In this document: positions 21,684 to 61,224 of the stretch, piece by piece
Layout of the letters: every line of letters begins with the position of its first letter
Position numbering within the stretch: position 1 is the stretch's first letter
Assembly: GCA_020348885.1 (NCBI GenBank)
Contig: CP070755.1
Location: 1,532,196 to 1,594,646, forward strand
Length of the DNA stretch: 62,451 nt
Direction: 5' to 3'
Source: Candidatus Coatesbacteria bacterium
Lineage (GTDB): Bacteria; RBG-13-66-14; B26-G2; WVWN01; G020348885
Made by a program: the position numbers and the translations under genes
The notes under the pieces: generated by a model
Told to the model about the DNA's origin: nothing
What the model saw: the letters and a program-made list of their open reading frames with translations, nothing else
Databases searched by the model: none

Positions 21684-22820
21684 CTATTCGGCAAAGCCGG
21701 CTTTGATTAAGCCTAACGACTCCCTCTTTATCGCAGCGTAACCCGTGGTGAAGTCCCAGGTTTCGGTCGCGTTGTTACCCGCCAGGTCCTCGGTGTAAGT
21801 CTCGACGGTGTAGGTCGTCCCTTCGTCCAGCTCGTCGTCCGGCTCGAACTCTACTATTACGTCCATAGGGTCCGTGTCTTCCACGAATAGCGAACCGTTA
21901 ACAGTACCGCCGTTCGTCAGCGTAAACGTCGAGTTGGCCAGGTTTATATTCGTCGTATCGTCGACCCAATGACAGCCGGGGCGCACGTCAACCGGCACGC
22001 CGGACGGGAAGTCTCCGTCCAGCGGATATTGGTCCGTGACGTAGGGGTCATCGTCGTCGATTAACTCGCCGTAAAGGTCGTACATCATTGGGTAACCTAT
22101 AGAGTTCCAGGACGAACCCGTGTAACCGTATTGGACAATACCCGGCGGTATAACGTCGACGGGAGTGTCCGTCGGACCGGCGTACGGAAGCGGGTTTGCG
22201 TAGAGTTGGGTTGCGAACCAGTATATAGACGCCGAGTCGATGGAGAAGTGCCAACCGCCGCTCGCGCAGTCTTCTATGCTGGCGCCGATTTTGTAAACCT
22301 GATAAGGCCCTATAACGATATCCGGTATATCGGTACCGGTAAGGTCGCTAAACTCCCAATAGTCGGCGGCGACCAAGCCTGTTATGCCGCCGTAGCTTAA
22401 CCCGCCGTTCCCGGCGGCCGTATCCGCGTGCCATCCGCTGTCGTCGGTTTCGTTCGGCCGGTTGGTCGCAGGTTCGGGGCCGCCGTCTTCCCAGATACAA
22501 ATCCAAGCGCCGTAAGTAGAGTCCCAAGTGCCGTACCAGGGGAGAATCCATATTTCCCACCTGGTCAGTCTGTAACCGTCGAAAGCCGCGCCCACCTGGA
22601 AGTTATCGGCGACTTTCGCGTCAATACCCGGGTTTTCGTACCACATAGAATCCCACGCGCCGGTTCCTTCAAGGAAGTCGCCCTGTTCGAATATCAGTTC
22701 CTCTCGCGTGTCAGTTACGACCGGGGCGCCGGCGGTAACGCCGCTGCCGGTGATTTTCTCGCTCGATACGGCGCAAGCCGCCGAAACGACTATCAGTAAG
22801 GTTATTAGGTACTTAAGCAT
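21684..22820 (-). CDS. Secreted acidic protein, family X (Trp/Gly-rich N domain + Big_5-like Ig domain + SLGxIKA tail)
   Basis: Signal peptide; KVADNFQV...GWHAD...GNGGL; PY.TD.YP.D...GVPVD...TYTVE...DLAGN...WDFTTG; ends ESLGLIKAGFAE. Confidence 0.85.
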   Translation of the reverse strand: MLKYLITLLIVVSAACAVSSEKITGSGVTAGAPVVTDTREELIFEQGDFLEGTGAWDSMWYENPGIDAKVADNFQVGAAFDGYRLTRWEIWILPWYGTWDSTYGAWICIWEDGGPEPATNRPNETDDSGWHADTAAGNGGLSYGGITGLVAADYWEFSDLTGTDIPDIVIGPYQVYKIGASIEDCASGGWHFSIDSASIYWFATQLYANPLPYAGPTDTPVDVIPPGIVQYGYTGSSWNSIGYPMMYDLYGELIDDDDPYVTDQYPLDGDFPSGVPVDVRPGCHWVDDTTNINLANSTFTLTNGGTVNGSLFVEDTDPMDVIVEFEPDDELDEGTTYTVETYTEDLAGNNATETWDFTTGYAAIKRESLGLIKAGFAE

Positions 22821-22863
22821 CTCGTACCCCCCCTTTACGAATTCGGGTGTTTATACATATAGG

Positions 22864-22892
22864 TATATATCATACTTTCGCATATCTGTCAA
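22864..22892 (-). promoter_or_regulatory. Putative sigma70 promoter of the family X gene at 21684-22820
   Basis: TTGACA-N17-TATATA with TG extension. Confidence 0.6.
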
Positions 22893-23307
22893 ACAACGAT
22901 TTCGCGCGAATCCTAAAATTGTTTTAACGTTCGGGCGCACGTTTTAACCACGGCCTCCGGAAGTAACTTTACGGACAGGCATACTCGGTCTGTCCGATCG
23001 GCGCAACCGACGGTATTGAGAGCCCGAAAAACGCGCGGATTAACGACGGACCGACCTAAAGGTCGGCCCTTACGCGTAGCCGAATGGCGTTTAAACGACC
23101 GTTATCCCCGTCACGTAGTTTTTTGATGTAATTTGATACGTGATGACACGGCCTTCCGTCTCTTAACGCGCTATTGTTTATTTTACGAACGCTGAAATCG
23201 ATACTATCGATACCTAGAAACCCGGACGTACCAAAATTACCGGAAAAAACGAATGCGTCTTCACCTCCACGGAGTTTAAGAGAAATACTCAAAGTTCTGG
23301 ATTAGTT

Positions 23308-24189
23308 TTGGGCGCTCTCCCAAACAGATCGGAAGTCCCCGTACCGGCGGAGTCGGATCTAACGTACTTCGGCTCCGCCGCGACTTCCCTGTTTCCGCGC
23401 CGGGCGCTGGACTTAATTTTAGGTTATTACGAAACCGCCGGACGCTCTGCTCGGCGGCCGTTACGGTAGAAGTTGCCCGGGGCGTCGGCCCTATTGCCCC
23501 TCCTCAATGTTGCCCAGTCGGCGCCCCATTTCCCTATCGACTTATCCAAAGTCGATCCTGATTTCTTCGCGATGTCCGGTCACAAGGCTCTCGGGCCGAA
23601 GGGCGCGGGCGTTTTGGTCGTCAAAGAGCGTAACTTCGACCGCCTGAAACCGGCCCGGCTCGGCGGGGGCATTATTACCGACGTGACCCTCGACGCTTAT
23701 GAGCTGGCGGATTCCCCCGCCTGCTACGAAGCCGGGACCCACGACCCGGCCGCGGCCGCCGGCCTGGCCGAAGCGTTCAAGACCCTCGACGAACTCGGTA
23801 TGGACCGCGTCGCAGAACACGACCGGGCTCTCGGCACGCTTCTCTATAACGGCTTGAAAAACATCGCCGGCGTTATGGTTTTTGGGCCGAGCGACCCGAC
23901 CGAACGCACCGGGACCTGCGCGTTCGCGATTGACGGGGTGAAACCGCCCCGGGCGGCCGCGCTGTATGACCGGCTCGGGAACGTCGCCGTCCGGTCCGGG
24001 CATCACTGCGCCCTGCCGCTCGCGACCGAGTACCTGGGGCGACGGGAAGGAACCGTCCGCGCGTCCCTCTACGTCTATAACTCGGAAGAGGAAATAGAAC
24101 GGTTCCTCGAAGTAACCGAACGGGTAGTCGCGATCGGCAAGGGGAATAGCGCCGGAGTTTCCTCGGGCGCCACGGAGACGCAAGCGTGA
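23308..24189 (+). pseudogene. sufS: Cysteine desulfurase (SufS/CsdA group II) pseudogene with internal deletion and in-frame stop
   Basis: One frame reads ...DLTYFGSAATSLFPRRALDLILGYYETAG...PLR-TAG(23467-23469)-KLPGASALLPLLNVAQSAPH...DFFAMSGHKALGP...RSGHHCA...RASLYVYN. The region between the AATS and DxAQ motifs is much shorter than in intact enzymes, and the DxAQ Asp reads Asn. Confidence 0.8.
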
Positions 24190-24500
24190 AGACCGGTTTG
24201 ACATTCGGCGGGCAACCGGTAAACGTTTACTCCTTCGAACTGTGTCACTACGGCGAGAACGGCGACTACGAGGTATTCCCGGACCGGGAACTGGGGTTGG
24301 ACTTGGCATCGGCCCGCGACCGATTGTCCGCCGGCGGGTATGAGATCGACTTCGCGGCCGAAGAAGTGCTTATCTTTAAGAAGGCCGGCGCCGAATATAC
24401 CCTCTTCGACGACGGGCGCCTTATTATCGAGGGGCTGGCGCCCGGGTCCTGCGAGCAGGCCGCCGAGACGGCGGTTCCGATCGTGGGGTATGAGAAGTAG
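24186..24500 (+). CDS. Stand-alone small protein resembling the C-terminal extension of MoeB/ThiF-family proteins
   Basis: ELC...YEVFP...LDL....RL..GGY.......LIF......YTLFDDGRLIIEG; start overlaps the sufS remnant stop (GTGA). Confidence 0.55.
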   Translation: MKTGLTFGGQPVNVYSFELCHYGENGDYEVFPDRELGLDLASARDRLSAGGYEIDFAAEEVLIFKKAGAEYTLFDDGRLIIEGLAPGSCEQAAETAVPIVGYEK

Positions 24501-24588
24501 GGTTGTACCTTCAGTTGCGACTGATTGACAGTGTTCGACTAGATATGTAAGAAGCGGCGGACTTTACGCCCGCCGTCAAGCAATAACA

Positions 24589-24615
24589 AAGCGGCGGGGA
24601 TAAACCCCGCCGCTT
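24589..24615. terminator. Bidirectional hairpin between convergent genes
   Basis: AAGCGGCGGGG-ATAAA-CCCCGCCGCTT, perfect 11 bp stem. Confidence 0.65.
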
Positions 24616-24645
24616 CGTGGCGTCATAATCGTTGATAGGTATACC

Positions 24646-25673: not shown

Positions 25674-25693
25674 CGCTTTTCCCCCTTTGTCGG

Positions 25694-27921: not shown

Positions 27922-27948
27922 AGTAAACACCGGCGGTTAATTATTATA

Positions 27949-30099
27949 GTGGGGAGGCTACTTATTGTGAGACCCGTTACCCTCTTAAGCGCGTGTTTTC
28001 TCGCGCTTTTTTCTATTGTACGCGCCGCATCCGTAGAAACTCAAAGCGATTGGTCCGGCGGCGGAGGAGTACTCGGTCCGGTTACGGAATGGGGCAACGA
28101 GTTCCACTCGTCCACTAACGTCAGTTGGTTTTCCTACCCGGGCTTAATATACCTTAGTTCTCATCAGGCGGACTCGTTCGAGAAGCATAACGTAGCCAGC
28201 GGCGTTGATAAACCTATGTGGATACGAACAACGGACATAGACAACGATAAAGATGCCGATATCGTCGTCGCGACTTACGAAGGGAACAGGATACGGTGTT
28301 ATATTAATGAAGGGTACGGCAAATCGTGGTCTCCTGCTTCGATACTAAACGATTTCAAAGGCGCTTATAAAGTTTGCCCCGGCGATTTCGACCACGACGG
28401 CGATACCGACTTGGCGGCGACCGGGATTACCAACGGTGAAATAGTCTGGGCCGAAAACGTCGACGGCGACGGTTTATTATGGGAAAAACATACGATATCC
28501 GCCGATTACGAATACCCGGTTTCGCTCTGGGTTGCCGAAGTAACCGGGGATTGTTTACCGGACGTCTTGACGTCGTCCCATATATTGGACGAAGTAACCT
28601 TGTGGGAGAACGATCGTTCGGGTAATGTGTGGATAAAACGTACAATCGACGACGAAATCACGACGCCGGTCTGGGTGCGCGCCGGTGATATGGACGGCGA
28701 CGGCGACCTCGACGTCGTAGTATGCAACAATATTATCGGGAGCGCATACGGTTACATAGCGCTGTACGAAAATGAAGACGGTTCCGGCGAAACGTGGGCT
28801 AAGCGATTAGTCGGGGAACCATCCATCGCCGGAAGGAGATATACCAACCTGGTCGACGTCGAGGGCGACGGCGATCTGGATATTATCGTCGCCGTCGGCA
28901 GTAGTATAATTCTCTACAAAAACACCGACGGATCCGGTAAAAATTGGTTTATATACGTTATAAAATCGCATTATACCGGTCTTCGTCCTTTATACGCCTC
29001 CGACGTCGATGAAGATAACGATTTTGACGTCATAACCGGAAACAGTCTCGATAACGAGGTCCGCTGGTGGGAAAACCGGGGAGGAAGTATTTTTACCGAA
29101 TGGTCATATTATAGAATCTGCGATAGTTACGATACGACTTCCGGTATCGACACCGGCGATATAGACGGTAATTACGATTTCGAAATCGTGGCGAGCGATA
29201 TTCTCGGCCGCGAAATAAGTTGGTGGGACGTTACCGAGTTCGAAACCGACGGTACCCTGGAGTCCTCCATATTGGATACCGAGGTACACCCGTACTGGGG
29301 TTATATATCCTGGGAGCCCGGAGGGCTCCCCGTAAACGGCTTTACTGAGTTTTTCGTGCGTTCGTCCAACGACCCGGAAGATATGGGCGAATGGTTTCAG
29401 ATTGGCGACGCACAGAACGTTTTTTTAGGAGATTATCTCGAAGACCATACGCGTTACTTCCAATACAAAGTAGCGTTGACCCACGGTTTCGGTACCCCCG
29501 CCGTCTCCGAAATAAGGGTAACGTGGTTCCCGGCTACGGGCGTAGGCGACTGTGATTTCGACGCGGTTTCCGAAGCGGAGGGTATCGCCCTCACCTGGGA
29601 ACGAGGAAGCGTCGATTACGCCGGATACAATTTGTTACGATCCGCCGCTCACGACGGTTTATCCGCGGCTCCCGAGAAAATCAACGCGGGGTTAATAACG
29701 GGGGCGCCCCCGCATCGGTTCCTTGACAGCGAAGTGTCCGAAGGCACGACTTACGAGTATTGGTTGGAAGCGGTGGACGCCGGTGGTGGTGCGGAAACCT
29801 GGGGGCCCGTAGCGTGTACGTGGGGCGGGGACGTACCCCTTACTTATGCGTTATACCAGTCCCGGCCGAACCCGGCCCGCGGCGGAACCACCACAATCGC
29901 GTTCGACCTGCCGGCGGAAACGAAAGTAACGTTGAACGTTTACGACATCAGCGGACGGAAAGTCGCGACGCCGGTGAACGCGTTCTTAACGGCCGGTAAC
30001 CACACGGCGGAGGTTTCGGGGCTGGCGTCCGGGGTTTACGTCTATCGAATGAAAACGGACGAGTTCGCCGGCGTACGGAAAATGGTGATACTCGAATAA
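27949..30099 (+). CDS. Secreted FG-GAP repeat protein with Fn3-like domain and T9SS type A-like CTD
   Basis: Signal peptide; GD.D.DGD.D repeats; GTLESSILD segment; C-terminal LYQSRPNPA...VYDISGRKV...GVYVYRM...KMVILE. Confidence 0.87.
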   Translation: MGRLLIVRPVTLLSACFLALFSIVRAASVETQSDWSGGGGVLGPVTEWGNEFHSSTNVSWFSYPGLIYLSSHQADSFEKHNVASGVDKPMWIRTTDIDNDKDADIVVATYEGNRIRCYINEGYGKSWSPASILNDFKGAYKVCPGDFDHDGDTDLAATGITNGEIVWAENVDGDGLLWEKHTISADYEYPVSLWVAEVTGDCLPDVLTSSHILDEVTLWENDRSGNVWIKRTIDDEITTPVWVRAGDMDGDGDLDVVVCNNIIGSAYGYIALYENEDGSGETWAKRLVGEPSIAGRRYTNLVDVEGDGDLDIIVAVGSSIILYKNTDGSGKNWFIYVIKSHYTGLRPLYASDVDEDNDFDVITGNSLDNEVRWWENRGGSIFTEWSYYRICDSYDTTSGIDTGDIDGNYDFEIVASDILGREISWWDVTEFETDGTLESSILDTEVHPYWGYISWEPGGLPVNGFTEFFVRSSNDPEDMGEWFQIGDAQNVFLGDYLEDHTRYFQYKVALTHGFGTPAVSEIRVTWFPATGVGDCDFDAVSEAEGIALTWERGSVDYAGYNLLRSAAHDGLSAAPEKINAGLITGAPPHRFLDSEVSEGTTYEYWLEAVDAGGGAETWGPVACTWGGDVPLTYALYQSRPNPARGGTTTIAFDLPAETKVTLNVYDISGRKVATPVNAFLTAGNHTAEVSGLASGVYVYRMKTDEFAGVRKMVILE

Positions 30100-30164: not shown

Positions 30165-30227
30165 AAAAAGGCGACCCCCTCGGGTCGCCTTTCGTTGGTT
30201 CGTTTGACCGTTTTACTGCGCGAAACC
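30165..30227 (-). terminator. Intrinsic terminator plus gene end, 63 bp repeat with 31558-31620
   Basis: AAAAAGGCGACCC-nct-CGGGTCGCCTTT hairpin; the two copies differ at one base by manual alignment. Confidence 0.75.
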
Positions 30228-31421
30228 CGCCTTGATGAAGCCGAAGGATTTTTCGACTATGTTAGTGTAACCTACGTCGAAGGTCCATTCGTCGGAAGCA
30301 GAGTTACCGGCGTTGTCGTAAGTCTCGGTTTCGACGGTGTACGTAGCGCCCTCTTCCCAGAAGTCGTCGGCCTCGAAGTCAACGATTACGTCGTATTCGT
30401 CAGCGTCGTCAATCGTAGTGGTGCCGGCGACAGGATCCATATCAGCGTCGTATACGTCGAAGGACGAAGCGTCCACGTCGATACCCGAGTTGGTTTCCGG
30501 GTCGCCGTCCTGCCAGTGGCAACCGGCCGTGTTCTCGGTAGGCGGTACGCCGCTCGGGTAGTCGGCGTCGTGGGGATACGTGTCGGTGATGGTCGGGTCT
30601 TCCTCGTCGGGCTCTCCGCCGCCGAACCAGTCGTAAATGGCCTGGATTACGTCGTCGAAGTTCGTCGTGTCCGAAGCCAGCTCGAAAGTAGAGAACAGGC
30701 CTTTCGTCGAGCCAGTGTCACAAGCTATGGCGAAGTTGTAGGAATAGCTGGGTTCGCCCGTGATGGCGACTTCGGACCTTTCCATCGGGTCCATGTCGTC
30801 GCAGAAGAAGTTGTTATCAGTAAACACGGCTGACGCGTAACCGGTACCGCTCAGGCCGTCCAAAGGCCCATAGCCGGTCCACGTGGTGCTGGCTACGTCC
30901 CAGAAAACGTCCTGCTCAATGTAATCTACCCCCATGTAGTCGTCGAACAACCCGTCGTTGGGCGTACCCCAATACGGCTGGTAACCGTAAATTAAGTCCT
31001 GGCCCACTATCAGAAGGTTTCCGCCGCCTTCGTCCATGTAATCGATTAACGCGCTGGCGTCCTCGGACTGGAAGTTCCGGGGGGCGGACCACCAGTTATC
31101 GGCCGTGAGTACGACTACTATCGGGTAATCGCTGGGGAGTAGCGGTTCGGGAAACGGAATCGGCTGATAGTCCGGAGCGGTTATTATCTCGGTTGTCGAA
31201 ACACCCGCGTTCAAGAACGCGTCTTCGTACTCGTCGGTAAGGTCCGGGAACGTCCCACCGGCGAAGTCCCCGGCAATTAGTACGTCGGCTTGCCTGTATT
31301 CCGCGAATAGATCGAAGAAACCCGACGGGTTAGCGTAAATGCCGGCCCCGATCCTCGACGTATCCTGCGCTACCGCCGATACTACGAGAACCGAAAGGGA
31401 TAAAACCAATACCCACCTCAT
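30213..31421 (-). CDS. Secreted protein: alpha/beta (GATase/flavodoxin-like) N domain + Big_5-like domain + SFGxIKA tail
   Basis: Signal peptide; VLIAGD...PIVVVLT...LIDYMDEGGGNLLIVGQD; DP.ITDTYP...TYTVE..DNAGN...WTF; ends KSFGFIKAGFAQ. Confidence 0.8.
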   Translation of the reverse strand: MRWVLVLSLSVLVVSAVAQDTSRIGAGIYANPSGFFDLFAEYRQADVLIAGDFAGGTFPDLTDEYEDAFLNAGVSTTEIITAPDYQPIPFPEPLLPSDYPIVVVLTADNWWSAPRNFQSEDASALIDYMDEGGGNLLIVGQDLIYGYQPYWGTPNDGLFDDYMGVDYIEQDVFWDVASTTWTGYGPLDGLSGTGYASAVFTDNNFFCDDMDPMERSEVAITGEPSYSYNFAIACDTGSTKGLFSTFELASDTTNFDDVIQAIYDWFGGGEPDEEDPTITDTYPHDADYPSGVPPTENTAGCHWQDGDPETNSGIDVDASSFDVYDADMDPVAGTTTIDDADEYDVIVDFEADDFWEEGATYTVETETYDNAGNSASDEWTFDVGYTNIVEKSFGFIKAGFAQ

Positions 31422-31557: not shown

Positions 31558-31620
31558 AAAAAGGCGACCCTCTCGGGTCGCCTTTCGTTGGTTCGTTTGA
31601 CCGTTTTACTGCGCGAAACC
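31558..31620 (-). terminator. Intrinsic terminator plus gene end (copy of 30165-30227)
   Basis: Same hairpin followed by a U-tract on the minus strand. Confidence 0.75.
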
Positions 31621-32754
31621 GGCCTTGATAACGCCTACCGAAGAAGGTGTGATGTTCATGTAACCCGTGGTGAAGTCCCAGGTCTCGGTGGTGTTATTGC
31701 CGGCCAGGTCTTCCGCGTAGGTTTCGACCGTGTACGTTTCGCCCTCGTTGAGGTCGTCGTCCGGCTCGAAGTCAACGATTACGTCGAAGAGGTCGGTGTC
31801 ATCGACGGTGAGTATGCCGACCACCAGATCCATGTCGCCGTCGTAAAGGTCGAAGTACGAGTTGTCTACGTTAATACCCACGTCGGTTTCTTCCGGTTCG
31901 GTCCAGTGGCAACCGGCCAGGGTGTCAACCGGGACGCCGCTCGGGAAGTCGCCGTCCTGCGGGTACATATCGGTGATTACGGGCGGGTCTTCTTCCTGTA
32001 CGTCGCCGTAGAGGTTGAACATCATACCGTAACCCTTGGGGTCCCAGGACGTACCGGTCCACCCGTGCTGGGTCATACCACCGGACGTATGGTCGATGGT
32101 ATTGTCAGTCGGGCCGCCGTACGGCGTCGGGTTGGCGTAGAACTGCCCCCAGAACCACCAAACCTCGTCACCGGGGGCCCATGCCCAGCCGCCGCTTACG
32201 GCGTCTTCTACCCAGCCGCTGGTCTTGTAAACCGGGTAGTAGCCCCACAGATAGAAGTCGGCCGAACCGGTGCCTTCCATGTCGCCCCATTCATTGTAGT
32301 CAACGGCTTGGACGTCGGTTACGTAGCCCAGTCCGCCGTTACCGTCTTCCACGTCGTCGTGCCAGCCGGGGTTGGAGCCGTACTCGTACGGTTCATAAGT
32401 CGCCGGGTTGGAGCCGCCGTCGTCGGCAACACAGTACCAGAAACCCCTCGTCGTATTCCAGCTGCCGTACCAGAGGCAGAACCATATGTCCCAGGAGGTT
32501 AACGCATAGGTCTCGTACTCTTCGTCGACCTGGAAGTTGTCGCTCGTTTTACCGTCGGTGCCCAGGCCTTCGTACCACATGGAACCGTACGCGGAGTTGC
32601 CGCCGGAGCCGTCGCTCTGCATGTAAATCTGCTCCTCGCGCGTAAACGTATCGCTCGGGCTACCGATAGTAATACCACTGCCCGTAACCATATCGGGCGC
32701 AACGGCGAACGCCGTCGAAACTACCAACAAGGATGCCAAGAAGTACCTCATCAT
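31606..32754 (-). CDS. Secreted family X protein
   Basis: Signal peptide; SDNFQVD, PATYEPYEYGSNPGWHDDVEDGNGGLGYVTD, Big_5-like domain; ends SSVGVIKAGFAQ. Confidence 0.87.
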   Translation of the reverse strand: MMRYFLASLLVVSTAFAVAPDMVTGSGITIGSPSDTFTREEQIYMQSDGSGGNSAYGSMWYEGLGTDGKTSDNFQVDEEYETYALTSWDIWFCLWYGSWNTTRGFWYCVADDGGSNPATYEPYEYGSNPGWHDDVEDGNGGLGYVTDVQAVDYNEWGDMEGTGSADFYLWGYYPVYKTSGWVEDAVSGGWAWAPGDEVWWFWGQFYANPTPYGGPTDNTIDHTSGGMTQHGWTGTSWDPKGYGMMFNLYGDVQEEDPPVITDMYPQDGDFPSGVPVDTLAGCHWTEPEETDVGINVDNSYFDLYDGDMDLVVGILTVDDTDLFDVIVDFEPDDDLNEGETYTVETYAEDLAGNNTTETWDFTTGYMNITPSSVGVIKAGFAQ

Positions 32755-33023: not shown

Positions 33024-34013
33024 CTATTCCGGCTCTTCTTCACGGTCTTCGGAACTGAACATCATAATCTTCGATTTACCCTTCTGGTAAAGGGTTTTAA
33101 ATTTCCGGCCCATCAGTACCGGGTTTACCGATTCGGCCGCGACGCTCGGCCCTTCGCCGAAACCGAACTTCTCCTCCACGCGGCGCGCAGTATCCAACCA
33201 GAAAACGATGTCCTCGTCCCGGCCTTTCACGTCCACGTCCGGCAAAACCGCTTCGTACTCTTCGGTCCCGGCGAGGGATTCAAGCCCGGCCTCATAGGGT
33301 ATTATCTCCGCCGTTTTGCGCGCGTCGAAGAAACCCAGACGCACCACGTACAGCGAGCCGGACACGTCGAATACGTAATCGAACTCCGGCGTAATCCGTT
33401 CGACTGTAACCTCGCCCGGGTCCACGCCCAGGTCCTTCGCGAGTAAATACATGGCCAACGGTTTATTGGACTCGTACGGCGAGATGCCCTGGCGGAAAGC
33501 GCGCAAGAAACCCTGGTCCGTCGACGCCGGGACCACCGACGAATAGTACTCGAGGTACTCGTCCATCGTATCGAAGAAAAACACTTCCCGCATCTCATCT
33601 ATCGGCGGCGGCTCGAAATGGTACTTCCCGTCTTCCCCCTTTTCAGCGTACGACGCCATTATTTCGCCGCCGGGCGGTATCCTTTCTTTAATGGCGTCGA
33701 AGTCCTCCGGCTCTCCCTCGCCGCGGTACAGGGTTATCGAGTAGAACTTTTCCTCGCCGTCCAGCGACGCAAGCTCCATCACGTCTACCAATACCCGCTC
33801 GCTTTTGCCGAACTTTACGAGGTTCTGAGCGGACGCGCGGCCGTACGTGGCGTGGTACGAGGCGACCATCGCGAGTTTCGCGGCGGTTTCCTCGTCTATC
33901 GCCAGGACCTCTCCTTCCTCTCCGCCGGCGGGCGTAACGTCCGAGGGGAACGCGTAAATAGGCATGAACGCCAACATAATCGCGACGCAACTCATTATTC
34001 TCATTACAACCAC
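33024..34013 (-). CDS. Secreted acidic hypothetical protein embedded in the family X array
   Basis: Signal peptide (likely start MRIMSC); unrelated to its neighbours; no SLGxIKA tail. Confidence 0.7.
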   Translation of the reverse strand: MVVMRIMSCVAIMLAFMPIYAFPSDVTPAGGEEGEVLAIDEETAAKLAMVASYHATYGRASAQNLVKFGKSERVLVDVMELASLDGEEKFYSITLYRGEGEPEDFDAIKERIPPGGEIMASYAEKGEDGKYHFEPPPIDEMREVFFFDTMDEYLEYYSSVVPASTDQGFLRAFRQGISPYESNKPLAMYLLAKDLGVDPGEVTVERITPEFDYVFDVSGSLYVVRLGFFDARKTAEIIPYEAGLESLAGTEEYEAVLPDVDVKGRDEDIVFWLDTARRVEEKFGFGEGPSVAAESVNPVLMGRKFKTLYQKGKSKIMMFSSEDREEEPE

Positions 34014-34236: not shown

Positions 34237-35406
34237 CTATTCGGCGAACCGGGCCTTAATGCCGCCCAACGACTCGGGCGTTATGTTTACGTAACCGGTG
34301 GTGAAGTCCCAGGTCTCGATGGCGTGGTTGCCGGCGTAGTCCTCGGCGTAGGTTTCGACCGTGTACGTCTCGCTCTCGTTGAGGTACACGTCCGGCTCGA
34401 AGTCAACGATTACGTCATATATATCGGTATCGTCGACGTATAGAGTACCGTTAACCTCGTCCATATTACCGTCGTACAAGTTGAACGTCGAAGCGCCGAC
34501 GTTAATACCCGTGTCTTCGGGTTCCGGTTCGGTCCAATGGCAGCCGGCCCACGTATCTACGGGTACCCCGCTCTCGTAATCCGCGTCCTGCGGATACATA
34601 TCCGTGATAACCGGAGGGGGTCAACCTCAAACGGTACCGTAGAGGTTGAACATCATAGGGTAGTCCTTGGGGTCCCAGGACGTACCGGTCCACCCGTGTT
34701 GGACCATGCCGCCGGCCGTGTGGTCAACGGTGTTGTCCGTCGGGCCGCCGTACGGAGCAGTATTGGCGTAGAACTGTACCCACAACCACCAAATATCGGT
34801 ATAGCCGGCGGACCAATACCAACCGCCGGATACGGCATCGTCTATGGCTGCGCTTGTTTTATAAACAGGGTAGACGCCCCACAAGTAGAAGTCGGCCGAA
34901 CCGGTGCCGGTGATATCGTCCCACTCCCAGTAGTCGACGGCGGCGGTGTCGGTTACGTAACCCAATCCGCCGTTACCGGCCGCTACGTCGTCGTGCCAGC
35001 CGGGGTTGGAGCCGTATTCGTACGGTTCGTAAGTCGCCGGCGTCGTAACACCGTCCGCGGCGATACAGGCCCAGCAACCCATTGACGTGTCCCAGCTACC
35101 GTACCAGAGGCAGAACCATTCTTCCCAGGAGGATAAGCCATAGGCGTAGTAATCTTCATCGACCTGGAAGTTGTCGGCCGTTTTACCGTCGGTGCCAAGA
35201 CCTTCATACCACATGGAACCGTACGCGGAGCTGCCACCGGACCCGTCGCTCTGCATGTAAATCAGTTCGTCGCGCGTATCCGTCGCGCTGGGTCCGCCTG
35301 TGGTGATACCGCTACCCGTTATCCTATCGGGCGAAACGGCGAAGGCTTCACCGTAAACCGAAATAGCTACCGAAATAACTACCAAAATATATACAAACTC
35401 CCTCAT
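34237..35406 (-). pseudogene. Family X paralogue split by two in-frame TGA codons (ORFs 34627-35406 and 34237-34599)
   Basis: Both ORFs are in one frame. The junction reads YGTV-TGA-G-TGA-PPPVITDMYPQD where the intact paralogue at 31606 has YGDVQEEDPPVITDMYPQD. Ends ESLGGIKARFAE. Confidence 0.85.
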
Positions 35407-35459: not shown

Positions 35460-36617
35460 TTACTCGGCGAACCGGGCTTTAATCCCGCCGAACGATTCGG
35501 GCGTTATGTTTACGTAACCGGTGGAAAACTGCCAGCTTTCGGTAGCCGAATTACCGGCCAGATCCTCGGCGTAAACCTCGACCGTATAGGTCTCCCCCTC
35601 GTTGAGGTCTAATCCCGGTTCGAAATCGGTAGTTATGTCGTGTAAATCGCTATCGTCCACGTACAGCGTACCGTCGACCGGGTCCATGTTCTCGTCATAA
35701 AGGTCGAATGTGATATCCGCTACATTGACACCACTGTCCTCGTCCGTTATGCGGCAACCGGCCCACGTATCCACCGGTACGCCGCACGGGAAGTCCTCGT
35801 CGTGGGGGTAGGTATCGGCGATGACCGGCGGGATATCTTCGCCCGGCTCGCCGTAGAGGTTGAACATCATACCTTGGGACGAGGGGTCCCAGTCCGTACC
35901 GGTCGCGTGCCGGACCATGCCCGGGGATATGACGTCGACGGTGTTATCCGTCGGGCCGCCGTACGGACCGGGGTTGGCGTAGAACTGAACGCACCACCAG
36001 TAAACGTCGGTATCGGGGATATACCACGCCCAGGGGCCGTCGTCGCATACGACGTCTTCTATGCGCGCGCCGGTCTTGTAAACCGGGTAGTAGCCCCACA
36101 GGTAGAAGTCGGCCGAACCGGTGCCGGTGATATCTTCCCACTCCCAGTAGTCAACGGCGACGGTGTCGGTAACGTAATCCAATCCGCCGTTACCGTCTGC
36201 CACGTGGTCATGCCAACCCGGGTTTTCGCCGTACTCGTACGGTTCGTAGGTGGCCGGTTCCGTACCGCCGTCTTCGAAAATTACGCACCAGCAGCCCATC
36301 GACGTGTTCCAGTTCCCGTACCAGAGGCATATCCACTCTTCCCAGGCGGTCAAGGCGTACCCGTCAAATGAGGTTTCAACCTGGAAGTTGTCAGCCACTT
36401 TCACGTCGCCACCGGGCCCGTAGAACCCACCCAACGCGGAGTTGCCGCCGGACCCGTGACTCTGATAGAATATCGTATCGTCGCGGGTATCGGTCGCGCT
36501 GGGTCCGCCTGTGGTGATACCGCTGCCGGTAACCATATCGGGCGAAACGGCGAAGGCTTCACCGCAACCCGAAATCGCTACGGAAATAACTGCCATAACA
36601 TATACAAACTCCCTCAT
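35460..36617 (-). CDS. Secreted family X protein
   Basis: Paralogue motifs as above; ends ESFGGIKARFAE. Confidence 0.88.
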   Translation of the reverse strand: MREFVYVMAVISVAISGCGEAFAVSPDMVTGSGITTGGPSATDTRDDTIFYQSHGSGGNSALGGFYGPGGDVKVADNFQVETSFDGYALTAWEEWICLWYGNWNTSMGCWCVIFEDGGTEPATYEPYEYGENPGWHDHVADGNGGLDYVTDTVAVDYWEWEDITGTGSADFYLWGYYPVYKTGARIEDVVCDDGPWAWYIPDTDVYWWCVQFYANPGPYGGPTDNTVDVISPGMVRHATGTDWDPSSQGMMFNLYGEPGEDIPPVIADTYPHDEDFPCGVPVDTWAGCRITDEDSGVNVADITFDLYDENMDPVDGTLYVDDSDLHDITTDFEPGLDLNEGETYTVEVYAEDLAGNSATESWQFSTGYVNITPESFGGIKARFAE

Positions 36618-36669: not shown

Positions 36670-37845
36670 CTATTCGGCGAACCGGGCCTTGATACCGCCG
36701 AGGGACTCGGGCGTTATGTTTACGTAACCGGTGGTAAATTGCCAGCTTTCGGTAGCCGAATTACCGGCGAGGTCCTCGGCGAAGGTTTCGACCGTGTACG
36801 TTTCGCCCTCGTTGAGGTCGTCGTCCGGCTCGAAGTCAACGATTACGTCCCAGAGGTCCGTGTCATCGACGGTGAGCATGCCGAGCACCAGGTCCATGTT
36901 ACTGTCGTACAGATCGAAGGTGGAGTTGCTTACGTTAATACCCGTGTCGTCGGGATCCGGTTCGGTCCAGTGGCAGCCGGCCAGGGTGTCAACCGGAACG
37001 CCGCTCGGGTAATCGCCGTCCTGCGGGTACATATCGGTGATTTCGGGCGGGATATCTTCGCCCGGCTCACCGTAGAGGTTAAACATCATCGGGTAGGGCT
37101 TGGGGTCCCAGGACGTACCGGTCCAGCCGAACTGGACCAAGCCCGGGGGTATGACGTCGACGGTGTTATCGGTCGGACCGCCGTAAGGAGCGGGGTCGGC
37201 GTAGAACTGTACGCACCACCAGTAAATATCGGACGAGGGGATAGCCCATGCCCAAGGGCCGTCGTCGCATACGACGTCTTCTATGCGCGCACCGGTTTTG
37301 TAAACCGGGTAGTAACCCCACAGGTAGAAGTCGACCGAGCCTGTACCGGTGACGTCGTCCCACTCCCAGTAGTCAACGGCGACGGTATCGGTAACGTAAT
37401 CCAATCCGCCGTTACCGTCTGCCACGTCGTCGTGCCAACCCGGGTTCTCACCGTACTCGTAAGGTTCGTAGGTAGCCGGCGTCGTGCCGCCGTCTTCGAA
37501 GATTACGCACCAGCAACCTTTCGACGAATCCCAGGTACCGTACCAGAGGCACATCCACTCGTCCCAGGCGGTCAAGACGTACCCGTCAAATGCGGTTTCG
37601 ACCTGGAAGTTGTCGGCGGCTTTCCCGTCGGTACCCAGGGCTTCGTACCACATAGAACCCCACGCAGAGTTGCCGCCGGGGCCATGACTCTGGTAGAATA
37701 TCATATCCTCTCGCGTATCCGTCGCACCGGGGCCGCCTGTGGTGATACCGCTGCCGGTAACCATATCGGGCGATACGGCGAAGGCTTCACCGTAACCGGA
37801 AAACGCTACCGAAATAACTACCAAAATATATACAAACTCTTTCAT
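36670..37845 (-). CDS. Secreted family X protein
   Basis: Paralogue motifs as above; ends ESLGGIKARFAE. Confidence 0.88.
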   Translation of the reverse strand: MKEFVYILVVISVAFSGYGEAFAVSPDMVTGSGITTGGPGATDTREDMIFYQSHGPGGNSAWGSMWYEALGTDGKAADNFQVETAFDGYVLTAWDEWMCLWYGTWDSSKGCWCVIFEDGGTTPATYEPYEYGENPGWHDDVADGNGGLDYVTDTVAVDYWEWDDVTGTGSVDFYLWGYYPVYKTGARIEDVVCDDGPWAWAIPSSDIYWWCVQFYADPAPYGGPTDNTVDVIPPGLVQFGWTGTSWDPKPYPMMFNLYGEPGEDIPPEITDMYPQDGDYPSGVPVDTLAGCHWTEPDPDDTGINVSNSTFDLYDSNMDLVLGMLTVDDTDLWDVIVDFEPDDDLNEGETYTVETFAEDLAGNSATESWQFTTGYVNITPESLGGIKARFAE

Positions 37846-37897: not shown

Positions 37898-38989
37898 TTA
37901 CTCGGCGTACCGGGCTTTGATGCCGCCCAACGACTCGGGCGTTATGTTTACGTAACCGGTGGTAAACTGCCAGTATTCGGAAGCCGAGTTGCCGACCATG
38001 TCCTCGCAGTAGATTTCAACGGTATAGGTCTCACCTTCGTTTAGGTCCTCGTCGGGTTCGAAGTCGATGATTATATCCGTCGGGTCGCTATCGTCCACGT
38101 GAAGCATACCGTTGACGGGGTCCATATTCTCGTCGTAAAAGTCGAAGGTAGAAGCGTCCATACGTATGCCGCTGTCGGCGTCTCCCATGTGGCAACCTAT
38201 CCACGTATCCACCGGGACGCCCGACGGATAGTCCTCGTCGTGGGGGTAAGTATCGGTAATGTACGGGTCTTCGTCGTCGTCGCAGGGAACGCCGTACAAC
38301 CGCAGCGGCAACCCGCCGGGACCGGCGTCGGTCCAGGGACCGCCCCCTATCATCCAATCCGGCGATAGATTATCGGCGCAATCCGGAGGTCCAAAGACTG
38401 AACCCGTGAAATAACGCTGGCAAGCGAACCAAAAAACCTCGTCGGGGATGACCCAGGTCCAGCCTTCCGTTACGGCGTCCTCTATTCGGGCGCTTAATAA
38501 ATAGACCGGGTAATAACCCCATAAATACCAGTCTATTGTCTCGGTCAGATCGTTGTAGTCCCAATAGTCAACGGCGACGGTGCCGGTGACGTAACCGAGT
38601 CCGCCGTTACCGCCTTCCACGTCATCGTGCCAGCCCGGGTTTGAACCGTACTCGTACGGTTCGGTGGTCGCGGGTTCGGTGCCGCCGTCTCCGTAGATTA
38701 TAACCCAGGCCCCTTTTAAATAATTGGGAGAGCCGTACAAATAACAGAGATAAGTCTCCCACTCGGTCAGTTCGTAGCCCGGCGTGTCAACCTGGAAGTT
38801 GTCGGCTACTTTCTCATCGGAAGTAGAACTGTATGCGAGATATCCACCACCCACGCCGTCCCACTGGTTCCATATCATATCGTCCCGGGAACCGGACGGA
38901 GCAATTTCAACGACGGATGATGTGGCGAAAACGGAGCTTTGGACTAAAACGCCCAAGGCTAGAAGCATTACTAAACCACGTTGAATCAT
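37898..38989 (-). CDS. Secreted family X protein (divergent first gene of the array)
   Basis: KVADNFQV, EPYEYGSNPGWHDDVEGGNGGLGYVT; ends ESLGGIKARYAE. Confidence 0.87.
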   Translation of the reverse strand: MIQRGLVMLLALGVLVQSSVFATSSVVEIAPSGSRDDMIWNQWDGVGGGYLAYSSTSDEKVADNFQVDTPGYELTEWETYLCYLYGSPNYLKGAWVIIYGDGGTEPATTEPYEYGSNPGWHDDVEGGNGGLGYVTGTVAVDYWDYNDLTETIDWYLWGYYPVYLLSARIEDAVTEGWTWVIPDEVFWFACQRYFTGSVFGPPDCADNLSPDWMIGGGPWTDAGPGGLPLRLYGVPCDDDEDPYITDTYPHDEDYPSGVPVDTWIGCHMGDADSGIRMDASTFDFYDENMDPVNGMLHVDDSDPTDIIIDFEPDEDLNEGETYTVEIYCEDMVGNSASEYWQFTTGYVNITPESLGGIKARYAE

Positions 38990-57147: not shown

Positions 57148-57231
57148 ATATAATACGCCCGCTTACTGAAGTCGGTTTTCGCCACTCCGTACGCGGCCTC
57201 CGGGAACAACGGCAGGAAGAAAAAATATTCA

Positions 57232-57260
57232 TTGACGGAATATACAAAATTAGCTATTAT
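57232..57260 (+). promoter_or_regulatory. Putative sigma70 promoter
   Basis: TTGACG-N17-TATTAT, 50 nt upstream of 57311. Confidence 0.55.
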
Positions 57261-57310
57261 AACTTCGCGGTAAGTCGAACAAGGGTAGCATAATCTGGGA
57301 GGTGTCGTAA

Positions 57311-57652: not shown

Positions 57653-57794
57653 TTTAATTTCCATTACCATACGGGCTTGGTAACTAAGAATAGGGCTTAC
57701 CGGGAATAAGTGCGTCGATTATGCGGTCAGCCGCTTTTACGGCACGACAGCAACGCGCATCAACCGTTACGGCGTTCCTAACGGATTAACGGGC

Positions 57795-58790: not shown

Positions 58791-58890
58791 CTCGTTACCT
58801 CCTAAAAAGGTTATTTAATACTATAAACGAGGTGAATTCAAGATCCGGAACCGAAACGGACCAGCCGTTCTAACGAATCGTGTTACCCCG

Positions 58891-59787
58891 TTACTGGTAG
58901 GTAGCTTTTATTTCGCCCAGGGACGCCTCTCCCACGCTCGAACCGGTGACGGTGAACGTCCATACCTCGTCTTCGCCCATTTCGTTGCCCAGGCCGTCCG
59001 CCAGCTCTCCGTCCACGGTACAGGTTATCGTAGCGCCCGCGGGTAAGTCGCTATGGGGCGAGAAGGTACAGAGTACGTCGTTGGGGTCCGTGTCGTCAAC
59101 GTCCAGGGTACCGGGTATGTCGGCTTTTGTGCCGTCGTCGGCCGTAAACTCGATAGTATCCGAGTCCACGCCGTAATCGCCGTCCTTGCAGTGGAAGATT
59201 ATGTCCGCGGCCGGGTCGACTCCCGTTTCGCCGTCGGCCGGGTCCTGCTCGTCCACGTAGGGCGGGTCGAAGTCGTCGTCTATTTTAACGCGGACCATCA
59301 GGTCACGAGCCGGGTCCCAATCCCAACCGCCGGGCTGCCAACTATAAGCAAGCCCGTGGTCCGGATTTGTGCTATCCCAACCAAAAAAAGGAGTGTCCAT
59401 ATCGTTATAATCGATACCTACCCAGAACCTATCGCCGCTGGACATCGTCACCCCGAGGTGCGTAAGGTCCACATACTCCGACCAAACCCAAGAGGCCCCT
59501 ACCGCGAACGAGTGCTCAAACGAACCTAGTACGTCTCCCGGAAGGTCCAAGTAAGGGTTATCGGCCCACACTCCTACAAGCTGGGTTCCGCTCGTATTAA
59601 CATAGTACGAAGCGCTAACGATATGGCAGTCGACCGGCGCTTCGAACCACTGAGCGAATCTGAATAATTCGCAGATATAAGAACCTTCCCTCGTATCGTC
59701 GGACTGCTGCAGGATCTGTTCTTCTCTATCCGCAAAAACGGTTACCGCGACCGCGAGAACGATAAAGATTGGAAGTACGTATTTCAT
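58891..59787 (-). CDS. Secreted protein: beta-sandwich N domain + Big_5-like domain + SLGxIKA tail
   Basis: Signal peptide; FAQWF...VGVWAD...FWVGI; PPYVDEQDPADGETGVDP...DGLGN...WTFTV; ends EASLGEIKATYQ. Confidence 0.82.
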   Translation of the reverse strand: MKYVLPIFIVLAVAVTVFADREEQILQQSDDTREGSYICELFRFAQWFEAPVDCHIVSASYYVNTSGTQLVGVWADNPYLDLPGDVLGSFEHSFAVGASWVWSEYVDLTHLGVTMSSGDRFWVGIDYNDMDTPFFGWDSTNPDHGLAYSWQPGGWDWDPARDLMVRVKIDDDFDPPYVDEQDPADGETGVDPAADIIFHCKDGDYGVDSDTIEFTADDGTKADIPGTLDVDDTDPNDVLCTFSPHSDLPAGATITCTVDGELADGLGNEMGEDEVWTFTVTGSSVGEASLGEIKATYQ

Positions 59788-59840
59788 AGTCCCACCTCCC
59801 GCGTATCTATCCCAACCTCGGTTTACCCAAGTAGCAGCTT

Positions 59841-59869
59841 ATTATAGTGTACTATTCTATTTTTACCAA
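59841..59869 (-). promoter_or_regulatory. Putative sigma70 promoter
   Basis: TTGGTA-N17-TATAAT. Confidence 0.45.
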
Positions 59870-60030
59870 ACGAAAAGCGATTCGTGCGTTGTTCTTTATA
59901 ACGGGCTAACTTACGGCAAAACCGCCCGAAACCAGGCGGTCTTAAAAATCCGATAAACGACGACGATAACGACTAACACCGGGGTTTGGTTTTGCGGTCC
60001 GCGGTTTTGATTGCGGGCTCCAAACGGAAC

Positions 60031-60606
60031 TTATCCATAGTAAATCGCAATTATGTACCCGAGAGACCTCTCCACCGGTTTATTGGACGCGTTTACGAAA
60101 TAGCTTGAAGCCGTAAAGTCGAGCCGTTCACTAACGACCCAGTTATCATACCCGCCGAAAGTGTCGTTCGCAAACCCGAAGTCGCAAAGACCTTCGGCAT
60201 AGTAACCGCCGGCCGGAGTTACCATAACGAGCAATGTCATCGGGACGTCTTTTAATATGTACGTGGTACCTTCTTCCGGGTCGCTAACGTCCGTCGTATT
60301 GAAATTGATTTCTAGCAAATCGGCTTCTAAAAACATGTTTTCGCAAGTTGTAGTGAAATCTTCCCGGTCCCACGACTCCGGTATTTCGTAATCCCCTACC
60401 GGAGTCCCTACGTCGTTCGGGTCGAAGTAAAATACGAAGTCATCACTCAGAAGCCCGTCTAGAAGGTAGAGACCGCGCCTGTTGAAGGATTCTTCGACTA
60501 ACTCGAGGGCGTACGCGGGCGTATTACCCTGAGGCGTTATAGCGTTGTTACAGGCTACGAGAGTTGTTAGGATTAGAAGAACCGTCAAAGGTTTGAGAAC
60601 GTTCAT
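60031..60606 (-). CDS. Lipoprotein, NTF2/SnoaL-like fold, with SLG-type tail
   Basis: Lipobox LVAC; ELVEESFN...LLSDDFVFYF...W.REDF....NMF; ends RSLGYIIAIYYG. Confidence 0.75.
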   Translation of the reverse strand: MNVLKPLTVLLILTTLVACNNAITPQGNTPAYALELVEESFNRRGLYLLDGLLSDDFVFYFDPNDVGTPVGDYEIPESWDREDFTTTCENMFLEADLLEINFNTTDVSDPEEGTTYILKDVPMTLLVMVTPAGGYYAEGLCDFGFANDTFGGYDNWVVSERLDFTASSYFVNASNKPVERSLGYIIAIYYG

Positions 60607-60642
60607 AAAACCAACCCCTTCGTTAACGTGGCTAGAAAACGT

Positions 60643-61224
60643 TTAATAAAAACTCGCTAAAATATTACCTAAAGAAGTTGGTGTCCCGGTACTCGATAAC
60701 CCCGCAGAACCCCTCGGCGAAGTATCATCGTACCACTTGCTCACCTTCCAATCGTCGTAACCGGCCGAAGTATCGTTGGTAAACTCGAAGTCGCAAACCC
60801 CATTGGCCGTGAAACCGTTATTTGCGTCTATCATAACTAAGAACCGTATATGGACGTTGTATACTTCGAAAGTCGTAGCCCCTTCCTCCGGGTTTTCGAT
60901 GCCGGTCGTAACGATATCAAAGTTAATCAAATACGCCAGGTCAAACATATTACCGCAAGCCCTCATAAAATAGTCTCGATTCCAGAAGGTAGGTATCATA
61001 TAATCCCCTACGAAAGTACCTATATCGTTCAGGTCGAAGTAAAAGACGAAGTCGGTACTCAGAACACCGTCGAGTACCGAAATAGCTCCCCTGTTGGAAG
61101 ATTCCTCCAGAAGTTCTAGCACGTCTGCGGGGGTGTTGTCACCCTGGGACCGTATTGTGTCTTCGTCGCAGGCTATGAGAGTTGCTATGATGAAGATAAC
61201 GGTTAAAAGAGTTATGGGTCTCAT
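60643..61224 (-). CDS. Lipoprotein, NTF2/SnoaL-like fold, paralogue of 60031-60606, with SLG-type tail
   Basis: Lipobox LIAC; ELLEESSN...VLSTDFVFYF...WNRDYF...GNMF; ends TSLGNILASFY. Confidence 0.75.
   Translation of the reverse strand: MRPITLLTVIFIIATLIACDEDTIRSQGDNTPADVLELLEESSNRGAISVLDGVLSTDFVFYFDLNDIGTFVGDYMIPTFWNRDYFMRACGNMFDLAYLINFDIVTTGIENPEEGATTFEVYNVHIRFLVMIDANNGFTANGVCDFEFTNDTSAGYDDWKVSKWYDDTSPRGSAGLSSTGTPTSLGNILASFY

Follow-up and report, generated by a model that had tools for sequence, protein, structure and literature searches.

Tail-bearing genes in the window and the genome

The window analyzed here is a stretch of 62,451 bp (C1:1532196-1594646) in a Candidatus Coatesbacteria genome that consists of one contig (C1, 2.6 Mb, 56% G+C) and is approximately 90% complete and partly masked. 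On its minus strand lie ten open reading frames (ORFs) whose exported products end in the same short C-terminal tail. The initial annotation had written the tail as S-[LFV]-G-x-I-[KIL]-A-x-[FY] and had proposed it as a second sorting or anchoring signal; translation of the minus strand gave all ten endings, and their positions, as they had been quoted there. The paralog of family X at 21684-22820 (378 aa) is composed of a signal peptide, an N-terminal domain without assignment, a Big_5 immunoglobulin (Ig)-like domain ending at residue 359 of 378, and the tail IKRESLGLIKAGFAE, which is encoded by the lowest ~48 nt of the ORF. Further family-X paralogs are found at 31606-32754 (382 aa, tail TPSSVGVIKAGFAQ), 35460-36617 (385 aa, tail TPESFGGIKARFAE), 36670-37845 (391 aa, tail TPESLGGIKARFAE, the protein modeled with AlphaFold below) and 37898-38989 (363 aa, tail TPESLGGIKARYAE). 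A split family-X gene occupies 34237-35406, in which the N-terminal piece (34627-35406) bears the signal peptide and the C-terminal piece (34237-34599) bears the tail TPESLGGIKARFAE. The two pieces share one TGA-broken frame; the initial annotation had counted 34237 as the 3' half of a split gene. Its two in-frame TGA codons, at 34627-34629 and 34621-34623, are two codons apart (...LYGTV-stop-G-stop-PPPVITD...). The paralogs have acidic residues where the TGA codons stand, and the context is not selenocysteine-like; the gene is a pseudogene of recent origin or else contains a readthrough site.

The remaining carriers in the window have other N-terminal parts. The 402-aa exported protein encoded at 30213-31421 starts with a part unrelated to family X, followed by an Ig-like region and the tail VEKSFGFIKAGFAQ. 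At 58891-59787, a 298-aa exported protein combines an N-terminal domain of a third type with a Big_5 domain (residues 174-279) and the tail GEASLGEIKATYQ. The gene at 60031-60606 encodes a lipoprotein of 191 aa, with a Cys behind its signal peptide and the tail ERSLGYIIAIYYG; it is one of eight family members that have Leu or Ile in place of the tail Lys, and its paralog is located at 60643-61224 (193 aa, tail TPTSLGNILASFY). A Big_5 Ig-like domain stands directly before the tail in eight of the ten window proteins. At least four dissimilar N-terminal types had been claimed, and four types without mutual BLAST similarity (E > 0.1) were indeed found; the fold names attached to them ('GATase-like' and 'NTF2-like') received no support from Pfam or PDB sequence searches and were dropped. 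Within the tandem family-X array, a 329-aa exported protein (33024-34013, minus strand) has no tail and no family match.

For a survey of the whole genome we used a crude gene call of our own (2,331 genes, 768,246 residues) and a loose pattern, [STA][LFVWIMY]G.[ILV][KILRV]..[FYW], placed 0 to 4 residues before the stop. The pattern ends 107 of the 2,331 genes, and 113 ORFs end in it when all stop-to-stop frames of the genome are read. Since there are 37 non-terminal matches in the 768,246 residues, only ~0.6 C-terminal matches are expected by chance; a reversed-protein control gave one. The initial annotation had suggested a hidden Markov model (HMM) scan of the proteome. Such a model found 113 matches no more than three residues from the protein end and three more at 7 to 14 residues, and no significant internal match in the gene set, except in one likely fused tandem gene. 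In total, approximately 115 of ~2,330 genes (about 5%) bear the tail. The tail is real, essentially only C-terminal, and reaches far beyond the window. In the small-lipoprotein family, one ORF of 357 aa (C1:1796087-1797160) has SFGRILALFY in mid-protein in addition to a tail at its end and looks like two tandem genes fused through a lost stop codon.

Column statistics gave a tail consensus of ~15 residues, [NS]-[IV]-x-P-[AT]-S-[LFVI]-G-x-[IV]-K-A-x-[FY]-[KR]-stop. The Ser (106 of 107) and the Lys (98 of 107) are near-invariant, and so is the Gly (107 of 107, a residue required by the pattern). Arg never replaces the conserved Lys in the ~115 tails although the pattern permitted Arg, whereas the final basic residue is freely Arg (39 of 107) or Lys (23 of 107). 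The residue at +1 of the Coatesbacteria tail is Leu, Phe, Val or Ile and never Trp. The stop codon follows directly after a basic residue in 84 of 107 tails, and many tails end in A-E, H, Q or Y. Usually one or two residues (0 to 2 overall) come after the aromatic residue. The small-lipoprotein family mentioned above carries its Leu or Ile at the otherwise invariant Lys position. Conserved residues are spread over the full codon sets of Ser (six), Gly (four), Lys (two) and Ala (four) at approximately the genome-wide frequencies. A DNA repeat was rejected as the source of the tail on this ground, and because all synonymous codons are used, it was concluded that selection acts on the tail peptide.

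Signal peptides were scored by a crude rule in the 115 tail genes and in the 2,216 other genes, and were found in 92 of the former and 569 of the latter. The 23 rule-negative carriers were then checked. Eight have an obvious signal peptide that was overlooked by the rule or begins at a downstream start; one is a lipoprotein with the start called too late and another is the split gene of the window; five have masked DNA within the gene or directly upstream; and in eight an in-frame signal-peptide-coding stretch lies upstream with one stop codon between. After this check no convincing cytoplasmic carrier remained among the 115, so the lack of cytoplasmic carriers that had been noticed in the window extends to the genome. 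Without their tails, the passengers form 30 BLAST clusters (33, 21, 8, 8, 6, 4, 4, 4, 3, 2, 2 and 2 members and 18 singletons). The combination of a signal peptide with a portable C-terminal motif on unrelated passengers, the core of the first proposal, is found genome-wide on at least 30 passenger clusters. The passengers that could be identified are PD40 and NHL beta-propellers, Big_5 Ig-like proteins and small lipoproteins; most have no Pfam match, and no enzyme was seen in the Pfam-typed set.

Six tail genes contain a single in-frame TGA shortly past the signal peptide, in redox-motif contexts (...KQS-TGA-GAC, ...YDT-TGA-TYC, ...SVL-TGA-AGC, ...YCGS-TGA-G, ...FCGE-TGA-F and ...SAC-TGA-SG). 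TGA-bearing tail genes are located at C1:2412300-2414500, C1:303800-304700, C1:1038544-1039203, C1:1148038-1148775 and C1:719612-720607. The TGA position is conserved in two diverged paralog pairs, and a stable hairpin (-13 to -22 kcal/mol) is found 5 to 16 nt past the TGA in five of the six genes (the sixth is weak, -5.6 kcal/mol). These six genes look like exported selenoproteins (UxxC / CxxU). No tRNA-Sec and no selenocysteine insertion sequence (SECIS) was detected in this ~90% complete, partly masked genome. At C1:136632-136724 ARAGORN reported a 'tRNA-???' of 93 nt whose anticodon has two bases and which has no Rfam match at E <= 0.1.

Distribution, conformation and relation to type IX secretion

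The profile of the Leu-form tail matches all 25 genomes of the phylum, with 76 to more than 145 tails per genome in the order of the window, 12 to 31 in the other orders of the class and 2 to 11 in the sister class. Tails of the sister class read S-W-G-x-I-K-A-x-[FY] or S-F-G. These tails, found within one and the same phylum, link the Leu-form to a Trp-form (W-form). A DNA pattern for the latter (W-G-x-I-K-A-x-[FY]-R-stop) found at least 120 loci in public genomes. Among the matches listed, 126 of 128 are true ORF ends after Ser or Thr, and the genomes are labeled Eisenbacteria, Krumholzibacteriota, Latescibacterota, Zixibacteria, KSB1, Calditrichaceae, Gemmatimonadota, Ignavibacteria/Melioribacter and Bacteroidota. 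Tails number 18 in an Eisenbacteria genome, 32 in a Krumholzibacteriota genome, 23 in a Latescibacterota genome and 66 in an unlabeled genome, and there is one each in the Melioribacter, Ignavibacterium, Zixibacteria, KSB1 and Calditrichaceae genomes. A profile built solely from the Leu-form retrieves the W-form tails as well, and a combined Leu plus Trp profile matches every tested genome of other phyla. The S/T-W-G-x-I-K tails that the initial annotation had mentioned for other candidate phyla are real and of the same family, as judged from the sister-class intermediates and the 126 of 128 listed matches.

The phylum to which the Melioribacter genome belongs was sampled with 201 genomes; a single tail ORF is present in 29 of them and none in the other 172. 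The single-copy carrier in Ignavibacteria-, Calditrichaceae- and KSB1-labeled genomes is a conserved protein of ~135 aa that consists of a signal peptide and one FN3-like domain followed by the tail VSGVKRTWGSIKAMFR; it is represented at L110:6038-6445 (minus strand) and 43 other loci, with the tail KRTWGSIKAMFR. This carrier was seen in metagenome-assembled genomes only. It is annotated as hypothetical in every source, without a Pfam domain, and its PDB matches are generic FN3 and Ig domains, which are uninformative. Its FN3-like domain is of the kind that precedes a type IX secretion system (T9SS) C-terminal domain (CTD) in many cargo proteins of the window's genome. The single carrier in Zixibacteria is a different protein, also of ~135 aa. 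By parsimony we infer that Trp is ancestral and that Leu/Phe is derived in the class of the window. The one-carrier genomes suggest an old housekeeping interaction, which some phyla may later have turned into a general address label. Many Trp-form tails outside Coatesbacteria have one or two Cys and a Pro-rich stretch within ~15 residues upstream (GECISPVE, CPPPVPTE, CECPVPNE); such a stretch is absent from the Leu-form tails of the window's genome.

In the Ig-containing window proteins the Pfam Big_5 match stops 13 to 18 residues short of the stop codon. The AlphaFold model of the protein at 36670-37845 was made with 15 homologs, all of which retain the tail. In this model the Ig domain covers residues 268-372 with a confidence score (pLDDT) of ~90 and its last strand at 363-372, and the tail residues 376-391 have pLDDT <50 with a loose helix at 379-389. 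In the model of the single-copy carrier, a tail helix at 124-134 (pLDDT 60-72) is placed behind the FN3-like sandwich (pLDDT >90). An integral last strand of the Ig fold, which the initial annotation had named as a possible refutation, was rejected on the early end of Big_5 and the end of the modeled domain at residue 372 of 391; the models put the tail outside the last folded domain. The amphipathic helix that had been proposed fared less clearly: AlphaFold predicts a helix at low to moderate confidence, but the periodicity of the tail fits a strand at least as well. The hydrophobic moment of the Leu-form is 0.47 at 170 degrees versus 0.28 at 100 degrees, and the conservation moment is 0.86 at 180 degrees versus 0.35 at 100 degrees, with S0, G2, I4, A6 and F8 as the most conserved positions. 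On the Eisenberg scale the Leu-form and the Trp-form are both strand-like. On the Wimley-White interfacial scale the Trp-form is slightly helical and the summed score of the Leu-form is negative (unfavorable).

In a T9SS, secretion of CTD cargo depends on the SprA/PorV translocon, and PorU cleaves off the CTD. The T9SS of the genome looks complete. SprA is encoded at C1:1411103-1414729, the PorU match (443 bits) is above the curated cut-off, and there are five PorV/PorQ-family paralogs. TIGR04183 has 67 matches in the genome, and a local CTD profile found 58 to 72 CTD proteins, none of which has the tail; conversely, none of the ten window tail proteins matches TIGR04183 or PF18962 at E <= 1. 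Two plus-strand genes of the window can be compared with the tail genes: a 716-aa exported protein at 27949-30099 ends in a TIGR04183 T9SS type A CTD (40.7 bits, cut-off 23), and a 759-aa exported protein at 519-2798 has a T9SS-CTD-like end (GVYIYRLDAGTFAAARKMVVQ, judged from sequence); neither has a tail. The exclusivity of tail and CTD, first noted on the window proteins, thus applies to the genome (0 of 58-72). One of the 115 tail passengers has a homolog among the CTD passengers, and the median length is 277 aa for tail proteins and 638 aa for CTD proteins. Tail genes directly adjoin CTD genes 13 times versus 4.1 +/- 2.1 expected (p = 0.0002). When the CTD labels were shuffled among signal-peptide genes only, the expectation was 5.6 +/- 2.3 adjacencies (p = 0.004). 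Ten of the 13 neighbor pairs are co-oriented, several with gaps of 40 to 51 nt. Tail and CTD are mutually exclusive per protein and mark different cargo classes here, and they are genomically associated.

All tail-bearing genomes tested contain T9SS cargo, both the 25 of the phylum and the 12 from elsewhere. The tested tail-bearing genomes outside the phylum have 51 to 146 CTD matches each, with one dubious bin showing two tails and two CTDs. The word 'separate' in the proposal of a separate secretion or attachment pathway finds no support, given this co-occurrence and the gene adjacency above chance. In other phyla, one passenger cluster consists of 49 ORFs, 12 of which are tail-bearing, and an example member ends CTD-like.

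Candidate readings of the tail

We give an even chance to the reading that the tail is recognized by a conserved envelope partner as an address or retention tag. In this reading the carrier proteins pass the inner membrane on the Sec or lipoprotein route, and their tail, exposed once export is complete, would dock as an amphipathic helix or an added beta-strand into a conserved envelope protein, which could be a receptor, a shuttle or an enzyme. This partner would retain the carriers at the outer membrane or cell surface, or transport them there, parallel to the T9SS. The pattern of conservation favors specific recognition or Lys chemistry over plain membrane binding: the Ser, the Gly and the Lys hardly vary, and Arg is accepted as freely as Lys at the last basic position but never in place of the conserved Lys. 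The weak membrane affinity expected of the Leu-form, taken together with the same Lys rule, also favors a specific partner over plain lipid binding. The sorting or anchoring function proposed at the outset is compatible with the data in the form of a C-terminal address or retention tag; no reader, destination or processing was found, and two candidate readers failed.

The following points weigh against a partner-read tag. No gene family recurs beside the tail genes of the window's genome except T9SS cargo, and no neighbors are conserved across phyla around the W-form loci (at least 120). The first candidate reader, a family of 1140-aa outer-membrane proteins, was rejected because it is present in 15 of 20 tail-negative as well as in 38 of 40 tail-positive genomes. 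The second, NCBIfam PorV2 (NF052325), has true members only in four tail-negative genomes and was rejected as well. To serve more than 100 types of cargo with one receptor in stoichiometric amounts, the partner would have to be abundant or catalytic, and the lipoprotein family with Leu or Ile for Lys means that Lys is not required everywhere. The indicators of tail conformation conflict (AlphaFold helix versus strand-like periodicity), and with T9SS cargo in all tail-bearing genomes tested, independence from the T9SS is not supported. A contrast of presence and absence within the phylum is impossible because 25 of 25 genomes have the tail. The PorV/PorQ family binds C-terminal signals; by analogy, the five paralogs of this genome may be attractive candidate readers, none of them singled out.

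The 1140-aa outer-membrane protein is encoded in a conserved cluster at C1:2252505-2260056 together with a PorV-family barrel, an NHL-repeat lipoprotein and a 614-aa Omp85/BamA-like protein. It shows a faint local likeness to SprA. At least ten further genomes of the phylum have weak matches to the SprA model in frames of 1,120 to 1,200 aa, and these frames are probably the same 1140-aa family. The family was confirmed in most sampled Bacteroidota genomes.

Taken one step further, the partner-read tag could represent an undescribed post-Sec sorting or surface-anchoring route of bacteria of the Fibrobacteres-Chlorobi-Bacteroidetes (FCB) group. Its signal would be of a new architectural class, ~15 residues long, with neither a membrane helix nor a folded domain. 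An ancient one-client interaction would have been expanded to tens or more than 100 clients in each of Coatesbacteria, Eisenbacteria, Krumholzibacteriota and Latescibacterota, where the route would operate beside the T9SS with smaller cargo. We advance this broader proposal tentatively and consider it somewhat doubtful.

An anchor that needs no partner is the rival that survives best, and we consider it unlikely. The tail would lie as an in-plane amphipathic helix on a membrane leaflet, in the manner of PBP5/PBP6 or MinD/FtsA. This is consistent with the helix in both AlphaFold models, with the W-form residues Trp1, Ile4, Leu/Met7 and Phe/Tyr8 sharing one helical face flanked by Lys and Arg, and with a reader gene not being found in the neighborhood and candidate tests. 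The more hydrophobic tail of the lipoprotein family (K to L/I) and a chance look-alike (TSWGKIKAL, residues 389-397 of an ABCG-type transporter, E ~3) point in the same direction. However, lipid-binding helices tolerate exchange of K and R and of G and A, whereas the tail never has Arg for its Lys and holds its Gly and Ser almost unchanged from phylum to phylum. With one or two large hydrophobic side chains among its ten residues, the tail would be a weak anchor; the Wimley-White interfacial sum of the Leu-form is negative; the periodicity of hydrophobicity and conservation is nearer to a strand than to a helix; and the conserved [IV]-x-P segment upstream is left unexplained.

A tag that works within the T9SS appears rather improbable to us. 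A PorV/PorQ barrel would hold the tail proteins, as PorQ holds PorZ, or the tail would let small proteins ride with or join CTD cargo. The T9SS cargo in 25 of 25 and 12 of 12 tail-bearing genomes, the presence of SprA, PorU and five PorV/PorQ paralogs, the excess of adjacent tail and CTD genes, the mixed passenger cluster of other phyla (12 of 49) and the FN3-like domain of the single-copy carrier all argue for such a connection. On the other side, the co-occurrence may reflect shared ancestry within the FCB group, and the presence of PorV2 does not follow the tail. The tail has neither the Ig-like sandwich of 70 to 100 residues nor a TIGR04183 match (PMC11285876). Because 172 of the 201 sampled genomes lack the tail while the T9SS is widespread in Bacteroidota (PMC11285876), the tail is not a general part of the T9SS.

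A covalent tether, suggested by the residue conservation, has only a small chance of being correct in our estimate. An envelope transpeptidase would link the tail Lys to peptidoglycan or a glycolipid, similar to Braun's lipoprotein (Lpp). The Lys that is never Arg next to a final basic residue that is freely Arg or Lys would fit such chemistry, and the only family that drops the Lys consists of lipoproteins, which are already lipid-anchored. The aromatic-basic end of the tail resembles the ...YRK of Lpp. In Ignavibacteria, envelope-related genes are often found near the single-copy carrier (Maf at 32 of 50 loci, a putative SpoIID-like gene at 17 of 50 and a putative MATE/MOP-like gene at 16 of 50, as well as a membrane protein gene with the guessed label UPF0104-like). 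This synteny is not kept in Zixibacteria, KSB1 and Calditrichaceae, the conserved Lys stands 4 to 5 residues before the end with Lys as the final residue in only 23 of 107 tails, and no enzyme could be linked to the tail, which argues against a tether.

We give hardly any credence to a processing or turnover tag (a removable pro-peptide or quality-control handle) read by a periplasmic protease or PDZ protein of the Tsp/Prc/CtpA or DegS/DegP type: in its favor are the strict C-terminal position (0 to 2 residues past the aromatic), the predicted exposure and flexibility of the tail and its strand-like periodicity, since PDZ proteases bind short C-terminal peptides as an added strand, but its terminal residue varies (R, K, A, Y, H, E and others) and the register shifts while known PDZ readers rely on the last residue and the free carboxylate, the conserved part spans ~15 residues, and a degradation signal on 5% of the genes and on a conserved housekeeping protein is hard to explain.

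As an address label, the tail would mark a large share of the exported proteome in several uncultured phyla, with ~115 carriers here that outnumber the T9SS cargo, and would point to a sorting or anchoring step that is absent from current models of the diderm envelope. For these genomes the tail also offers a simple predictor, one line long, of proteins of the envelope or surface, and it would make a compact tag for engineering surface display. Ignavibacteria and Calditrichaceae include cultured species, and a single client in such groups makes the question amenable to bench work on one gene. The shift from Trp to Leu/Phe inside one phylum is a natural experiment that could reveal the reader by co-variation. 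New in this work are the Leu/Phe variant, the size, exclusivity and adjacency relations to CTD cargo, the Lys-specific rule, which the lipoprotein family breaks, the single-copy carrier in groups with cultured species and the exclusion of two candidate readers.

Comparison with known systems

Searches of NCBIfam, Pfam and PDB sequences gave no model or solved structure that matches the tail, and a search of 8.4 million papers with motif strings gave none that describes it, in the Leu-form or the W-form. A match to an already characterized sorting family, which the initial annotation had considered a possible outcome, was therefore not found in any of these sources.

Lpp has the C-terminus ...YRK, and its last Lys is joined to peptidoglycan by L,D-transpeptidases. 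The tail shares with it the aromatic-basic end and a Lys that is not exchangeable for Arg. It differs in that the conserved Lys is 4 to 5 residues from the end and a terminal Lys, as needed for attachment of the Lpp type, is the exception (23 of 107); moreover, Lpp is a single protein and its end is not portable. The amphipathic anchors of PBP5/PBP6 and of MinD and FtsA resemble the tail as short C-terminal peptides with aromatic, aliphatic and basic residues, and AlphaFold predicts a helix for the tail at low to moderate confidence. Such anchors work through their physico-chemistry and not through an exact sequence; they are not conserved in sequence between families, whereas the tail keeps its Ser, Gly and Lys across phyla, and MinD and FtsA act in the cytoplasm. 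The beta-signal of outer-membrane proteins (substrates of the BAM machinery) is the last barrel strand with an aromatic end, of the form polar-x-G-x-x-hydrophobic-x-hydrophobic. The hydrophobic residues of the tail stand at +2, +4 and +6 from the Gly and not at +3 and +5, there are usually one or two residues past the aromatic, and none of the identified passengers is a barrel, all being soluble propellers or Ig-like domains.

The tripartite C-terminal signals (LPXTG/sortase, PEP-CTERM/exosortase, GlyGly-CTERM/rhombosortase and MYXO-CTERM/myxosortase) have been described by eight attributes, including a transmembrane-length segment and a cluster of two to five basic residues (bioRxiv 10.1101/2023.06.07.544157). 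The tail has six of the eight. It is C-terminal, occurs many times per genome and contains at least three near-invariant residues (attributes 1 to 3); the carriers have signal peptides, are dissimilar and have homologs with another signal, the latter seen in the mixed cluster of other phyla (attributes 6 to 8). The transmembrane segment (attribute 4) is missing, since only 8 to 10 residues, including the Lys and a variable polar position, follow the signature. Attribute 5 is missing as well, with at most one basic residue and no Arg-rich cluster. No intramembrane or membrane-bound sorting enzyme is linked to the tail, another difference from these systems.

The T9SS type A CTD is a folded Ig-like 3+4 beta-sandwich of 70 to 100 residues with required motifs (PMC11285876). 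The CTD (TIGR04183/PF18962, or a FlgD_ig-like form in non-Bacteroidia) and the tail are both C-terminal signals on unrelated Sec-exported passengers, present in dozens of copies in the same genomes, and in other phyla homologous passengers bear one or the other. The tail is different in its length of ~15 residues, its predicted position outside the folded domain (pLDDT <50) and its lack of a profile match; in the window's genome the cargo sets are disjoint and differ in size.

The closest relative is the W-type tail (...PVE-x-S/T-W-G-x-I-K-A-L-Y-R). As in the Leu-form, it is found on signal-peptide proteins with unrelated passengers, in many copies per genome and always alongside T9SS cargo. 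The two differ in the position of the Pro, at -2 in the Leu-form and at about -5 in the W-type, and in the ends, as many Leu-form tails finish with ...F-A-E or ...Y-H instead of ...Y-R and one lipoprotein subfamily has Leu or Ile for the Lys. They agree in length, in position and in the S/T-x-G-x-I-K-A-x-[YF]-basic core, which is identical except for the replacement of W by L, F, V or I. From these sequence comparisons, the tail of the window's genome is the Leu/Phe variant of an S/T-W-G-x-I-K-A-x-[YF]-R tag that belongs to a family not yet described in the literature.

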